Positions 7,112 to 12,941 of a stretch of 64,000 nucleotides of DNA are shown piece after piece (within the stretch, counting starts at the first letter, position 1; every line of letters starts with the position of its first letter). The translations under genes were made by a program, and so were the position numbers. The notes below the pieces were generated by a model. It was not told the origin of the DNA and did not search any database. It saw only the letters and a list, made by a program, of their open reading frames with translations. This stretch comes from Longimicrobiales bacterium (lineage in GTDB: Bacteria > Gemmatimonadota > Gemmatimonadetes > Longimicrobiales > Gaopeijiaceae), in assembly GCA_965248195.1 (NCBI GenBank), contig CBDFIQ010000002.1, forward strand, positions 2,912,001-2,976,000, read 5' to 3'.

Positions 7112-7395
7112 CTATCCTCGACCTTCGGAAGTAAGGGGCTGAATCGGCGTGTACCGACGGGAACCTACGTACAATCCTTTGACAGGACACACGGCGGTCG
7201 CCCCGTGTTGTAATCGGGCCGACTGCATCCCTGCGCCACACCGGTTGGGCGACGACCACCCCCGGGGCGGCGGACGCGGTCTTCGCCCGCGCCGGACGTC
7301 GCGTGCTGTGACACGAGGTTCTCTCGACGGGAGGGTGGTGAACCCGCTAGCTTTGATTTCGCCTCTCAATGATCCGCTCAACCCGCCATAGACCC

Positions 7396-8007
7396 ATGAG
7401 CGACCCGTCGAAGCCGACTGTAGAGTTCACGAATCTCGCAAAGGACACCGTCCTCCGTTTCATGGAGATGCAGGGGGACGAGAGCCTTGCGGTGCGCGTC
7501 CAGGTTGCCAGCCCAAGCCCGCTCGATCCGCGCTACGAGATCACGATGATCGAGCCCGGTGAAAAATGCGCGGAAGACCAGGTGTTCGACGGCTACGGCT
7601 TCGAGGTCGTGATGGAGCCCGAGAGCGCGAAGCTCCTCGAAGGTGCTCGCATCGACTGGATCGAGACCCTGACCGAGAGCGGGTTCAAGGTCGAGAATCC
7701 CAACCTGGCGCCCATCGGCTCGAAGCCGTTGGAGGGCCCTCTGGCCGACCGAGTTCGACAGGCCATCGACCAATTCGTGAACCCCGGAGTGGCCCAGCAC
7801 GGCGGACACGTGACGCTGGTGGAAGTCAGGGACAAGATCGTCTACCTCCAGATGGGTGGGGGTTGCCAGGGCTGTGGGATGGCCTCGGTGACGTTGAGCC
7901 AGGGAATCGAGCGGATCCTTCAGGAGCAGGTGCCGGAGATTGAGGGCATCGAGGACGTGACGAACCACGGCGACGGCGAGAACCCCTACTTCAGCGCGTC
8001 CAAGTAA
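7396..8007 (+). CDS. nfuA: Fe-S cluster biogenesis protein NfuA-like (degenerate A-type domain plus NifU C-terminal domain)
   Basis: GFKVENPN ends the A-type domain; HGGHV...GGGCQGC (CxxC); C-terminal DVTNH..GENPYF. Confidence 0.85.
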   Translation: MSDPSKPTVEFTNLAKDTVLRFMEMQGDESLAVRVQVASPSPLDPRYEITMIEPGEKCAEDQVFDGYGFEVVMEPESAKLLEGARIDWIETLTESGFKVENPNLAPIGSKPLEGPLADRVRQAIDQFVNPGVAQHGGHVTLVEVRDKIVYLQMGGGCQGCGMASVTLSQGIERILQEQVPEIEGIEDVTNHGDGENPYFSASK

Positions 8008-8061
8008 AATACCCGGGTTTTGGGTATTGTGGGTAACCGGCACTCCGACGGAGGGCCTGTC

Positions 8062-9300
8062 GTGTCGAGGGTCCTTCTCCTCCTTTCACGAACCTCGTAT
8101 CGCGCCGAGGCTTTTGTCCACGCGGCCCGCCGCCTGGAAGTGGACGTCACGGTCGGCTCGAATCACCGGCAGGCCCTCGCCGACCTGACACCTGGCGGAG
8201 CGCTCACTCTCGGCGTCGGGGACATCCACCGATCGGTGGCCAGCATCGTGCGGTTCGCCTCGGACCATCCGCTGACGGCCATCGTGGCGGCGGAAGACGA
8301 TTTCGGGCCGGTGGCCGCGGCAGCATCGGAGGCCCTGGGGCTGACGCACCATCCTTCCGAGGCGGTCCGGTCCGCTCGTAACAAAGCGGTCATGCGGCAG
8401 CGGCTCGAGGCGGCCGGATTCCCGTCACCCTGGTTCCACGTTGCCTCCGTCGATGACGATGCGGAGGCGGCCGCAGCCGGTGCTCGCTATCCCTGTGTTC
8501 TCAAGCCGCTCGCGTTGTCCGCCAGCCGCGGGGTGATCCGCGCAGACACGCCCGAAGAGTTCGGCCGGGCCTGGAGCCGGATTCGGGCGATCCTCGAGCA
8601 GCCCGACGCAGTCACGCGCAGCGGCCACGGCGTGGCCGAGATCCTGATCGAAGCGTACATGCCGGGGGGCGAAGTGGCCGTGGAGGGGATCGTGGTGGGG
8701 GGCGAGCTGCAGACCCTCGCCGTCCTGGACAAGCCGGACCTCATGGAGGGGCCGTTCTTCGAGGAGACCATCCTTGTGACGCCTTCCCGTCTCCCCGAGA
8801 GTGTTCAGCGCGAGATCGTCTCCTCCGTGCAGCGGTCCGTGGCCATCCTCGGCCTCGATGACGGCCCCGTTCACGCCGAGCTCCGCGTGGACGCCGAGCA
8901 GGCCTCACTCCTGGAGATCGCGCCGCGCTCCATCGGTGGCCGTTGCTCCACGATCCTCCGCTTCGAGCCGGCGGCGACCTTGGAGGAGCTCATACTGCAT
9001 CATGCGTTGGGGATGCCGATCCACGAGTACTCCCTAGCGCCTGGAGCCGGCGGTGTCATGATGCTCCCGATTCTCGAAGCCGGCGTTCTGCGCGAGGTGG
9101 GCGGGTCCGAGGCAGCCCTCGAGATTCCGGGCATCGAAAGGCTCGAGATTACGATCCCGGTGGGCCAGAAGGTCGTGCCCCTCCCCGAGGGTAATCGCTA
9201 CTTGGGATTTCTCTTCGCCCGAGCAGCGACGTCCGAGCAGGTCGAAGCCGCGCTCAGGGTCGCGTACGCGAGGCTCGACGTGAAAGTCGAGCCCAGTTGA
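8062..9300 (+). CDS. ATP-grasp domain protein (carboxylate-amine ligase-like)
   Basis: RNKAVMR, YPCVLKP, SASRGV, IEAYMPGGEVAVEG, HAELR and EIAPRSIGG motifs; GTG start after GGAGGG. Confidence 0.85.
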   Translation: MSRVLLLLSRTSYRAEAFVHAARRLEVDVTVGSNHRQALADLTPGGALTLGVGDIHRSVASIVRFASDHPLTAIVAAEDDFGPVAAAASEALGLTHHPSEAVRSARNKAVMRQRLEAAGFPSPWFHVASVDDDAEAAAAGARYPCVLKPLALSASRGVIRADTPEEFGRAWSRIRAILEQPDAVTRSGHGVAEILIEAYMPGGEVAVEGIVVGGELQTLAVLDKPDLMEGPFFEETILVTPSRLPESVQREIVSSVQRSVAILGLDDGPVHAELRVDAEQASLLEIAPRSIGGRCSTILRFEPAATLEELILHHALGMPIHEYSLAPGAGGVMMLPILEAGVLREVGGSEAALEIPGIERLEITIPVGQKVVPLPEGNRYLGFLFARAATSEQVEAALRVAYARLDVKVEPS

Positions 9301-9325
9301 GGGACGAGCGCCGGAAATGTTTGAT

Positions 9326-9814
9326 TCAGAAATCCAGCGCCGAATCGTCATGGCGGGCCGGGTCATCCAACCGACCCAGCAGCTGCATCTGACCGGCCGT
9401 AATCCGGCGCCGACCGGCGTAGCCTCCGCTTATTTCATGCCAATACGCCACCTTGGGCTCATCCGACTGCCAGCAGAGATAGACCCAACGGCCATCTAGA
9501 GTGGTGGGAAAGTCGACCAGCCCGTGCTCGAGACCGCCGACCGGAAAGCGGATGCCCCGGTCAACAAGCCGCTGTTGGATGAGCTCTTCGATGGTCCGGC
9601 GGTACTCCGAGAGAGAATGACGATGCTGCGCGTACTCCTCGTGATCCGGGTTGGCACTTTGGGAGACCAGGTCGCCCCAAAGAGCGTCCAGCACGGCCAG
9701 CTGGTCCATCTTGCTGCGTGCCACGTCGCGAAGGCTTTGAATCTGGTTGAGGGCGGCCCGCACCTCAGAAAGCATCTTGTTTGCCTCGTCGACCGTAAAA
9801 GCATGATGGCCCAT
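9326..9814 (-). CDS. DUF2203 family protein
   Basis: FTVDEAN at the N-terminus; GLVDFP...VYLCW...E..VAYWHE..GYAGRR signature. Confidence 0.85.
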   Translation of the reverse strand: MGHHAFTVDEANKMLSEVRAALNQIQSLRDVARSKMDQLAVLDALWGDLVSQSANPDHEEYAQHRHSLSEYRRTIEELIQQRLVDRGIRFPVGGLEHGLVDFPTTLDGRWVYLCWQSDEPKVAYWHEISGGYAGRRRITAGQMQLLGRLDDPARHDDSALDF

Positions 9815-9818
9815 GACG

Positions 9819-10768
9819 CTAGCTTTCCGATCCTGTCACCGTCGCCACAGAGCCGAACTGACTCTCGGTCGGCTCAGCTCAGCAGAACCACGCTTCAGTC
9901 AGGTGCGGTGATCGGACACTCCGACGGCGGTATCGGGGTTGGGCTACGGTCCACGGGCCAAAAATGGTCGCAACGGCAAGCTCCTTGATTCGGTAGAACG
10001 TCGTTGCCGGGTCTTCACCCGAGTTGGCTGCTTCTTCAGCGACTCGCGAGACCTGCTGTTGTAGCGCGTCCACCTTGGGATCCGAATGCTGCCAGGTGTA
10101 CACGAAGTCCTTCTGAACCAGCCTCCCCAAGGAGGGCTGGATCTCAGGGATATCGAGGAGCCATGAGCCTGGAGGCAGAAGGAGTCTGATGGAGTATTGC
10201 ACTGGATCGAGGTGATAGATCAAATCGTGCTTCTGCACGAACTCGAGCAGCTCCAAATATCCCGACAGCGTCGTCCAAGGCGTGAAAGGCAACAGCGAGG
10301 GGCGAAGGGCTACGTCGGCGAATCGCGTGATCTCCAGGGCAGTGACCACGTCATCTCGGGTGTGACCCTTGTCGAGATACCCGAGAATACGGTCGTCCAC
10401 ACTCTCCACAGCGGACACGACGAATATGCACCCGAGCGCCGCCAGCTCCATGACCGCGTCACGATGCTGGATCAGGTGCTCGATCTTGGCCGTGAAGTTG
10501 AAGCTCAGTTCGGGGTGGCGGTTACGCATCTCCCGAACGACCCCGAGCGAGTGCTTCACACCGTTCAGCGGATCGCCGTGTGCATGGGAGTCGAGATCCC
10601 CACAAAGTCGGCCCGGCGAACCTTGACCTCGTCGATAACCTCGACGGCGAGATCCAGGCATTCCACTTGATGGCGCCCTTCCGCGATCAAGTGTGCGGCA
10701 GCGGACGCTACTCCGAACGGCTGATGGCCGAGCTCATAGCAGGAGATGAGGAGTACGTTCATTGCCAT
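9819..10768 (-). pseudogene. CUAEP-tail radical SAM (seleno)protein gene with internal deletion/frameshift
   Basis: N-terminal frame (MNVLLISCYELGHQPFG...PMHTAIR) stops at 10565-10567. A second frame gives the C-terminal half (..NGVKH..SAVES..ILGYLDKGH..PFTPWT..DPVQYSIRLL..PHLTEAWFC-TGA-AEP...TAG at 9819). No CxxxCxxC motif is present. Confidence 0.8.
9850..9881 (-). promoter_or_regulatory. Putative selenocysteine UGA codon and bacterial SECIS hairpin
   Basis: Minus strand reads TGA GCT GAGCCGA-CCGAGAGTCAGT-TCGGCTC: a 7 bp perfect stem starting 3 nt after the in-frame UGA. Confidence 0.65.
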
Positions 10769-11793
10769 CACCCGCCCCGCGTGTGCATCTCCCGGTGTGG
10801 ATCTTCGCGCAGATCTTCGATCTGATGGAGAGGGCCTCGGGAGCCCAGCGCCTGTCTATCCTCGGCCCCACGGTCGGTACGATTCGTCCACCCCCGGACG
10901 ATCAGCGACCTGATCTCATCTTGGGAGGCCCGCTCTCGGAGAGGCCTCCGAAGGTCGATCCCGTCGGCCGCGTACAGACACAGGAACCACATCCCATCCG
11001 CAGTGAGCCGGCTCCGGTCGCAGGCGCTGCAGAACGGCTCGGTTGTCGAGGCGATGATGCCGAAGGTCGTCCCGTCCGTTAGCCCAAAGCGGTCCGCCGG
11101 AGCCGAGCCATTCTCGCGGAGCGGCTCGATCGCCCCATAGTGCCTCTCCAACAGGCTCAGAATCTCCCTCCTCGAAACGACCCGATCCATCGACCACCGC
11201 GTGGCTCCGCCCACGTCCATGTACTCGATGAACCGGACTTCTGCGCCCCTATCCCTACCGAAGTCGATCATGTCCGTGAGTTCGTCGTCGTTGAACCCGC
11301 GCATGACAACGGTATTGATCTTGAGGGGTTTCAGCCCGCTTTCCGCGGCGGCATCGATACCTTCGAGCACCTGGGCGAGACGGTCGCGGCGCGTCAGTTG
11401 CTTGAACCGCTCCGGCCGTAGCGTATCCAGGCTCACGGTGACGCGGTCTAGTCCTGCGCTCCGGAGTGACTCCGCCTGCTGCGCCAGTAACACCCCGTTG
11501 GTGGTCATGCTCAGGTCACGAAGGTCCGGGTTCGCCGCCAGCCGCTCCACCACATCCGCCGCTTCGCGGCGGAGCAGCGGCTCGCCGCCCGTGAGCCTCA
11601 CCTTGTCCACCCCCAACTCGCTGAAGACATTGACGAGATCGCCGATCTGTTCGACGGTGAGGATGTCTTCGCGGGGCAGCCAGACATACTCCTCCTCGGG
11701 CATACAGTACTGGCAACGCAGGTTGCATTTGTCGATCAGTGAGACCCGGAGGCTCTTAAGAGGCCGGCCGAACGTGTCTGGCACTGTGCGCAT
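10768..11793 (-). CDS. moaA: GTP 3',8-cyclase MoaA
   Basis: DTFGRPLKSLRVSL, CNLRCQYC, RLTGGEP, FCSACDRSRL...LCL, C-terminal MHTRGG; ATG after AAGGA. Confidence 0.95.
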   Translation of the reverse strand: MRTVPDTFGRPLKSLRVSLIDKCNLRCQYCMPEEEYVWLPREDILTVEQIGDLVNVFSELGVDKVRLTGGEPLLRREAADVVERLAANPDLRDLSMTTNGVLLAQQAESLRSAGLDRVTVSLDTLRPERFKQLTRRDRLAQVLEGIDAAAESGLKPLKINTVVMRGFNDDELTDMIDFGRDRGAEVRFIEYMDVGGATRWSMDRVVSRREILSLLERHYGAIEPLRENGSAPADRFGLTDGTTFGIIASTTEPFCSACDRSRLTADGMWFLCLYAADGIDLRRPLRERASQDEIRSLIVRGWTNRTDRGAEDRQALGSRGPLHQIEDLREDPHREMHTRGG

Positions 11794-12029
11794 TTTCCTT
11801 GGTCTCAACTTCCCGAGGGACGGGGCAGGGCTACGTGGGCCGCCGCGATCAGTTTCCTGGGGTCTTAACCTATACATTCAGATACCAACATGTGGCATCG
11901 AGAATCAGCCGCGAGTATCCTGGCCCGCCCATGCCCCCACTGAGGTCACGTTCGGTCTCCGCCCAAGACGTGAGTTCGACTCTGGTCTCTGTCAACATCG
12001 GCAGCGGGGAGTACCGTTAGCTTACAGTC

Positions 12030-12233
12030 ATGGATTTGACGCCTGAGGAGCAACCCGTCGTCCGTCGTGCTGTGGCGGCGTACCACGAGATGAAGAAGCG
12101 GCACAAGGGGCCTTTCAGAGGGACGACTGCCAACGAGATTCTCGAAGAATTGAAGCCGTCCCTAGTTCGTTGGACTGAACTCGCCGCGTTCGTGATCGAA
12201 AGGGCAAAAGGACCCACACTGAGGAATCGCTAA
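12030..12233 (+). CDS. Small hypothetical protein
   Basis: 67 aa ATG-started ORF with protein-like composition filling an intergenic gap; no family recognised. Confidence 0.4.
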   Translation: MDLTPEEQPVVRRAVAAYHEMKKRHKGPFRGTTANEILEELKPSLVRWTELAAFVIERAKGPTLRNR

Positions 12234-12328
12234 CTTGGCGCGCCAGCTCACGCCGCTGGTCGCCATAGTGGTCAGACATGAGAATCGCGATTCGTTGGGT
12301 GCACCCTCTTGGGAATGGGCATGAATCT

Positions 12329-12649
12329 ATGATAAGGATGCCGAGTGCCCGTTTTTCGGTCGGTGACGTAGTGCACCACAAGCTGTTCGATTACCGAGGT
12401 GTAATCGTCGATGTCGATACGCACTTTCAAGGAACCGAAGAATGGTACGAAGCCGTGGCGCGTTCGAGACCACCCAAGCACCGTCCTTGGTATCACGTAT
12501 TGCCTCACGGAGCCCAACATCAAACGTATGTATCCGAACGAAACCTCGAACCAGATCACAGCGGCCTGCCCATTCAAAATCCCTTAGTGGAGCGCTACTT
12601 CACTGATTTCAGCAACGGGCGGTACGTCAATGATGTTCAGTTCCATTAG
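12329..12649 (+). CDS. hspQ: Heat shock protein HspQ (YccV-like)
   Basis: FSVGDVVHHKLFDYRGVIVDVD...PWYHVL...TYVSERNL. Confidence 0.9.
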   Translation: MIRMPSARFSVGDVVHHKLFDYRGVIVDVDTHFQGTEEWYEAVARSRPPKHRPWYHVLPHGAQHQTYVSERNLEPDHSGLPIQNPLVERYFTDFSNGRYVNDVQFH

Positions 12650-12941
12650 GGATCACGCCGTCTTACCGATCCGTCGAGCAGCTCGCGAGTGGATCCCCAA
12701 TACGATGACCCCGGGATTCGTGTGCCGAGGCGCCGAGTTCCACTTCGTGGGCGTGATCTTCGTCGTCCGACAGTTCCGGGAATACCTGCGACTGAGGCCG
12801 GCTCGGTTCATCGGCCAGGACGGAGGGCTGCGGCGGGAGTAGGGTGCCGGGTGAGCCCGACCTCGATCCGCTGGAACTGGTGCCGAGGGTCGACGGTTGG
12901 GAACCTGCAAGAGCTGAACGTACTCGGCTAGCGGGGGACGC

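Follow-up and report, generated by a model that had tools for sequence, protein, structure and literature searches.

In the window, which is the whole stretch of 64,000 nucleotides analysed here, an in-frame TGA codon lies on the minus strand close to the end of a broken radical SAM gene, between a DUF2203 gene and moaA. The features of this locus, and of the intact twin of the gene elsewhere in the genome, are as follows.

7369..8007, plus strand: NfuA-like Fe-S carrier gene, intact at both the window and the twin locus
8020..9300, plus strand: ATP-grasp L-amino-acid-ligase-like gene (ATPgrasp_N, ATP-grasp_4, LAL_C2), a conserved partner
9326..9814, minus strand: DUF2203 gene, intact in the window, with its 3' half deleted at the twin locus
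9819..9878, minus strand: 19-residue tail AEPTESQFGSVATVTGSES and its TAG stop (TAG at 9821-9819)
9865-9849, minus strand: likely SECIS, a 6-bp stem AGAGUC/GGCUCU (+14..+19 with +25..+30 after the TGA) with loop AGUUC
9850..9875, minus strand: the 7-bp stem GAGCCGA/TCGGCTC of the earlier note, an alternative fold that is mutually exclusive with the likely SECIS and not conserved
9881-9879, minus strand: in-frame TGA after the Cys codon TGC (9884-9882), at the selenocysteine position of the C-U-A-E-P motif
9819..10568, minus strand: 3' fragment of the NF040546 radical SAM gene (profile positions 228-467, E 1e-91, 308 bits, no CxxxCxxC)
10568..10569: blunt junction where, compared with the intact twin, 499 bp are deleted and the frame is shifted (L038 10173-10671)
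10565..10768, minus strand: 5' fragment of the radical SAM gene (67 codons, profile positions 1-62, 73 bits, B12-binding-like fold)
10768..11877, minus strand: moaA (GTP 3',8-cyclase), absent from the twin locus
C2:435975-437420, same genome: intact twin radical SAM gene (615-621 bits, full profile; 98.6% identical)

The letters of the window bear out the minus-strand reading TEAWFC-TGA-tail-TAG and the coordinates proposed in the earlier note, as well as its claim that readthrough leaves only 4 bp to the DUF2203 ATG (9814), against 64 bp if translation stops at the TGA. By this reading of the sequence, the window copy has a C-terminal C-U/C-A-E-P tail. Between moaA and hspQ lies a small unannotated segment (11967-12297), which is also present at the twin locus (94%) and partly repeated at C2:1804372-1804554 (89%). 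The end of the window (near C2:2974080-2975458) bears one of 104 full, near-identical copies of a 1376-bp element (another is at C1:34770-36145); its 433-codon frame resembles a transposase, and the element looks like the product of a recent IS burst.

The earlier note had placed the gene in the CUAEP/CCAEP-tail radical SAM family, and a match to the NCBIfam profile NF040546 confirms the placement. In the accessible part of 10.1101/2022.07.06.499078, NF040546 (rSAM_CUAEP, CUAEP/CCAEP-tail radical SAM (seleno)protein) is named, along with its CU motif, as an uncharacterised family. A search of the literature, supplements aside, returned no further relevant publication on CUAEP or NF040546; the supplements of the Haft preprint might describe the SECIS of the family. 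The family and its Sec tail are already catalogued, and to this known family the window gene adds a new but broken member. To describe the TGA site in the family, we surveyed related loci from species genomes and took the best 80 of 577, among which the closest named ones (L045 and L046, both Longimicrobiales) show 91% identity. The codon at the site is TGA in 50 of these 80 loci and TGC or TGT in 21; eight loci have no tail in the stretch and one ends early. AEP follows the codon in all 50 TGA loci and in 20 of the 21 Cys loci. Homologs therefore carry both CUAEP and CCAEP tails, as the earlier note had expected, with the UGA aligned to Cys and coding conserved past it. SelA scores above the cut-off in 44 of 49 TGA genomes against 4 of 21 Cys genomes; the genomes being related, incomplete and not independent, a Fisher p value overstates this contrast. 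The full set of sel genes that the earlier note proposed to look for is found in the genome itself, with selA (525 bits), selB (319) and selD (375) over their cut-offs and a tRNA-Sec (selC) present too, and this selD itself carries a TGA.

An ArsM-like methyltransferase gene at C2:2500710-2501369 contains one in-frame TGA, found also in many relatives, and is likely a further selenoprotein gene. At C1:1071378-1073597, 17 tRNA genes are packed into 2.2 kb and are partly redundant with the tRNAs of C2; no tRNA-Trp was called in the genome outside this array.

That the TGA is an ordinary stop, with the AEP tail and the hairpin present by chance, would agree with the database proteins (among the best 120 of 8000 scored matches, 86 stop at W[FY]C, 82 of them identified by regex and 4 by eye, 31 run on to CCAEP and 3 diverge earlier) and with the 5 of 49 TGA genomes that have no selA match, but it is rejected by the conservation of AEP, the Cys codons at the same site and the selA association, to which is added a covarying hairpin specific to TGA genes, and we regard it as scarcely credible. 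It is very likely that the TGA in the window is a selenocysteine codon, read via a downstream SECIS hairpin.

The SECIS is probably not the one first proposed. The 7-bp stem pointed out in the earlier note does exist (+4..+10 with +23..+29) and lies within the minimum-energy fold. The fold containing it has z values of -2.3 to -2.6 in stretches of 52-63 nt, -1.9 in 42 nt and -1.4 in 111 nt, and 3-5 of 200 shuffles fold as well as the 52-63 nt stretches. Across 47 distinct TGA sequences, however, this stem is 71.6% paired with a covariation of 0.161, values that 181 and 186 of 500 shuffles equal. Such chance-like behavior leads us to reject the stem as the SECIS, and the likely SECIS is an overlapping, shifted hairpin (+14..+19 with +25..+30). 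In the 47 sequences the shifted hairpin attains 91.8% pairing, 58 double changes and a covariation of 0.578, which none of 500 shuffles equals, and RNAalifold recovers the same helix. Because this hairpin was picked by eye from the sequences on which it was tested and their relatedness inflates the shuffle test, the stronger evidence comes from two controls: the hairpin lies far above slid controls, and in Cys-codon genes the same positions are only 50.8% paired. Moreover, a Gln-position codon CAG or CGG, which gives the G of the loop, is present in 46 of the 47 TGA sequences, whereas of 21 Cys genes only 10 have CAG. No Rfam family matched in positions 9300-12700 of the window.

The shifted hairpin has an energy of -7.1 kcal/mol alone and -9.0 to -9.9 with extension, against -17.5 for the competing fold, and becomes the best fold once +1..+8 are removed. 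A ribosome positioned at the UGA would take out +1..+8 by its footprint. The consensus bacterial SECIS, in the available portion of PMC13188914, has its loop 16-37 nt from the UGA, a G in the first two loop positions and an energy rule of -7.5. The shifted hairpin resembles it in having a 6-bp stem and a loop of 5 nt whose second base is G and which lies 19 nt from the UGA; it differs in that its core energy of -7.1 is marginal to -7.5 kcal/mol and in that a stronger UGA-proximal fold competes in naked RNA. The hairpin of the genome's own selD sits further from the UGA and thus gives no independent support for the 19-nt spacing. Judged from these alignments, the shifted hairpin at 9865-9849 is likely the SECIS of the family. 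We are nearly certain that the hairpin at +14..+30 is what SelB with Sec-tRNA would bind, the UGA-proximal stem meanwhile being melted by the ribosome, and that the tail ...WF-C-U-AEP... would result.

The minus-strand open reading frame described in the earlier note makes up just the 3' half of a gene that is broken. This gene matches NF040546 positions 1-62 in one frame and positions 228-467 in another, positions 63-227 are absent, and the two fragments stay below the curated NF040546 cut-off of 500 bits. The 5' fragment has its start overlapping the moaA stop and ends at a TGA created by the deletion. Compared with the twin, exactly 499 bp are missing, and the two flanking blocks show 14 mismatches in 1158 shared bases. 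The radical SAM CxxxCxxC motif (GCAHRCRHC in the twin) falls inside the deleted 499 bp, and the window copy has no such motif in an open frame. The window copy thus keeps the WFC-U-AEP tail of the family, but because it is frameshifted and lacks the radical SAM motif, it gives no working selenoenzyme as assembled. The claim that the UGA encodes Sec is well supported for the family and for the intact twin, and does not extend to a functional product of the window copy. The twin scores over the cut-off of 500 and has the GCAHRCRHC motif, the CUAEP tail and the same TGA and hairpin. It is likely that the window copy is a dead duplicate and that the twin would supply the enzyme.

The twin locus is itself damaged. 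It spans C2:432650-439560 (L038 6650-13580) in the order sufE-nfuA-ATP-grasp (truncated), convergent with DUF2203 (truncated)-radical SAM-sufB-tenA-tenA. A 755-bp deletion of its own fuses the 5' half of DUF2203 to the ATP-grasp gene, which has lost its 3' third and is intact in the window. The twin locus lacks moaA and has tenA-tenA-sufB, which the window is without. A second sufB at C1:948884-950302 encodes a protein 100% identical to that of the sufB at the twin locus. In L045, moaA, tenA-tenA-sufB and the other genes all lie within one block; in L040, moaA directly precedes the radical SAM gene, which suggests that the absence of tenA-sufB from the window may be old. Identity between the window and the twin locus is 99% in the radical SAM gene and falls to about 89% in nfuA, which suggests recombination or gene conversion. 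Counting both loci, a single radical SAM gene (at the twin locus), a single ligase gene and a single DUF2203 gene (both in the window) are intact in the genome. It is quite probable that the block was duplicated or re-acquired and that gene loss then took a different course in the two copies, so that each of these genes stayed intact once. Elsewhere in the genome, C2:3032757-3042441 and 3340207-3353681 form another duplicated, fragmented block (89-95% identity), possibly a second case of duplicate decay.

It could be argued that the window copy still yields a truncated selenoprotein by re-initiation at GTG 10559 or ATG 10529, serving as a metal binder or in translational coupling to DUF2203. 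In-frame starts are indeed available, one of them just 5 nt past the new stop, the TGA, the hairpin and the 4-bp gap are unaltered, and DUF2203 is intact at the window only. No well-spaced ribosome-binding site was seen by eye, however, the fragment would amount to half a barrel, and the recent origin of the copy (98.6% identity to the twin) already explains why these features are retained. We therefore consider such a product very improbable.

A better-supported objection is that the 499-bp deletion and the 755-bp deletion of the twin locus stem from faulty assembly or polishing of a near-identical repeat, so that the window gene is truly an intact selenoprotein gene. Both junctions are blunt, and the copies are 98.6-99.5% identical around them. 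Common polishers work in 500-bp windows, and 499 bp is near that length. Neither junction was among the matches listed in contigs of 6 of 22 public runs (three related samples, other strains), where only intact forms were found; these runs are not shown to include the source sample, and their intact contigs thus leave the artefact question undecided. On the other hand, 755 bp is no multiple of 500, the reciprocal losses leave one copy of each gene, and the window copy has substitutions of its own. It carries 4 derived amino-acid changes and the twin none, a count too small for significance, and the ligase halves, put through the same polarity test, show no asymmetry (6 vs 5). When 800 kb of two relatives were compared, no in-ORF deletion (ORF of at least 200 codons) was found in 466,623 aligned bases, and the deletions of at least 60 bp of any kind numbered 7, none of 450-550 bp, whereas the same script recovers both deletions on L045. 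The absence of a comparable in-ORF deletion in about 467 kb indicates that such deletions are not an assembly-wide artefact. An artefact is thus improbable, and real decay is in good probability the cause of the 499-bp deletion.

To explore what the intact enzyme might do, we compared the neighbors of the family. Among the best 80 of 577 loci, many of them on short contigs, an ATP-grasp gene is found at 32, NfuA at 29, DUF169 at 19 and YggX at 16, so that NfuA or YggX stands beside 45 of the 80; rarer neighbors are formyltransferase-like genes (11), selD (4), arsB-like genes (4) and weak methyltransferase matches (2). The ATP-grasp ligase also co-occurs genome-wide where it is not adjacent, in 64 of 70 family genomes and 6 of 6 family-positive relatives (two sets that partly overlap) against 3 of 54 negative relatives. 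This co-occurrence, together with reciprocal losses that spare one copy of each gene, points to a two-enzyme pathway. As family-wide partners, moaA, tenA, sufB and DUF2203 were rejected, being limited to certain lineages (moaA 6/80, DUF2203 3/80). ArsM was likewise rejected as a pathway partner, with 47 of 70 family genomes (E<=1e-40) against 40 of 54 family-negative relatives, the background being of one order only. In the Blastocatellia/Acidobacteriota loci L054, L055, L057 and L119, selD adjoins the ligase-radical SAM pair, and some of these loci also have EgtB-like and flavin disulfide reductase genes.

The predicted fold of the intact enzyme combines a B12-binding-like domain with a radical SAM barrel (pLDDT 90). 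Its nearest solved structures, at 14-18% identity, are AprD4, OxsB and TsrM; the matches listed include no ArsL structure, and a PDB sequence search gave weak RimO-like matches only. By profile, the nearest family to the twin is ArsL (NF040542) of arsinothricin biosynthesis; its 321.7 bits lie under the ArsL cut-off of 450 and far above the 61 bits of the next family. The two share the domain layout and 33-36% identity over 410 residues, the cluster motifs are similar (GCAHRCRHC in the twin and GCHHKCLYC in ArsL), and the terminal CC of ArsL aligns with the C-U of the twin. ArsL splits SAM into MTA and an ACP radical, and its tail binds As(III) (10.1101/2024.02.01.577332; likewise in the accessible part of 10.64898/2026.04.29.721666). 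As cited there from Mauger et al., every single Cys-to-Ala change in ArsL abolished activity; in the part available of the review PMC13598754, an 'MCCA' tail variant is given as the most efficient one, on methylarsenic. Unlike ArsL with its RCCLKC (CCxxC) tail, the twin lacks the third Cys, has an insert of ~45 residues before the tail and carries Sec; furthermore, arsM, arsN1 and ars transporters are not regular neighbors of the CUAEP family, and the ligase of ArsL clusters belongs to a different subfamily with 22-28% identity to the ATP-grasp ligase of the family. Two RCCLKC (ArsL-type) clusters on Priestia and Alicyclobacillus plasmids (L126 1738-2961; L127 1433-2665) carry, besides a CMD-family gene, one for an ATP-grasp ligase, a hint that arsinothricin may have peptide forms. 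Among the publications listed by a literature search, none combines ArsL with ATP-grasp, and none matches DUF169, arsenic and radical SAM together.

It is likely that the intact enzyme produces an unusual amino acid that the ligase then uses. By analogy with ArsL, it may cleave SAM at the C-gamma-S bond and transfer the 3-amino-3-carboxypropyl group onto a soft metalloid or metal that the vicinal pair of Cys and Sec would hold, after which the ATP-grasp ligase would couple the resulting amino acid into a dipeptide, with NfuA or YggX keeping up the Fe-S cluster. Taken as a whole, this mechanism is possible, somewhat short of an even chance. Arsenic as the specific target is rather doubtful, given the missing third Cys, the ~45 extra residues, the rarity of ars genes nearby and the lack of ArsM enrichment.

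Nearly as likely as the ArsL-like role is one in which the intact enzyme, a radical SAM/B12-fold enzyme, belongs to an Fe-S or oxidative-stress module and forms no carbon-metalloid bond; the C-U tail would then carry sulfur or selenium or act as a redox arm, and canonical chemistry would modify an amino acid for the ligase. The frequent NfuA and YggX genes, the presence of sufB and sufE in the twin locus and that of selD at four loci, in place of arsenic genes, would fit this role, as would the fold matches to AprD4, OxsB and TsrM and the absence of the third As-binding Cys. Yet Fe-S helper genes are expected next to any radical SAM enzyme, and ArsL is far nearer in sequence than other characterised families and keeps the same terminal CC. 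Considering all of the above, we find it fairly probable that the TGA is a Sec codon in a dead NF040546 duplicate and that the intact twin supplies an enzyme predicted to be ArsL-like.

What is specific to this window is the pseudogene status of the gene, the reciprocal losses between the twin loci and the corrected hairpin. With the SECIS of the NF040546 family now set by covariation, a synthetic construct must keep the hairpin. More tentatively, and rather less likely than not, the twin may be a Sec-armed enzyme, sister to ArsL, that forms a new amino acid with a carbon-metalloid bond; the ligase would turn this amino acid into a dipeptide across many phyla, the module having been duplicated here with complementary losses. 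If so, the genome would be a natural genetic experiment in which one working radical SAM gene and one working ligase gene were kept. The intact twin and its Cys-form homologs are subjects for asking whether the SAM cleavage of ArsL extends to a widespread selenoenzyme family.
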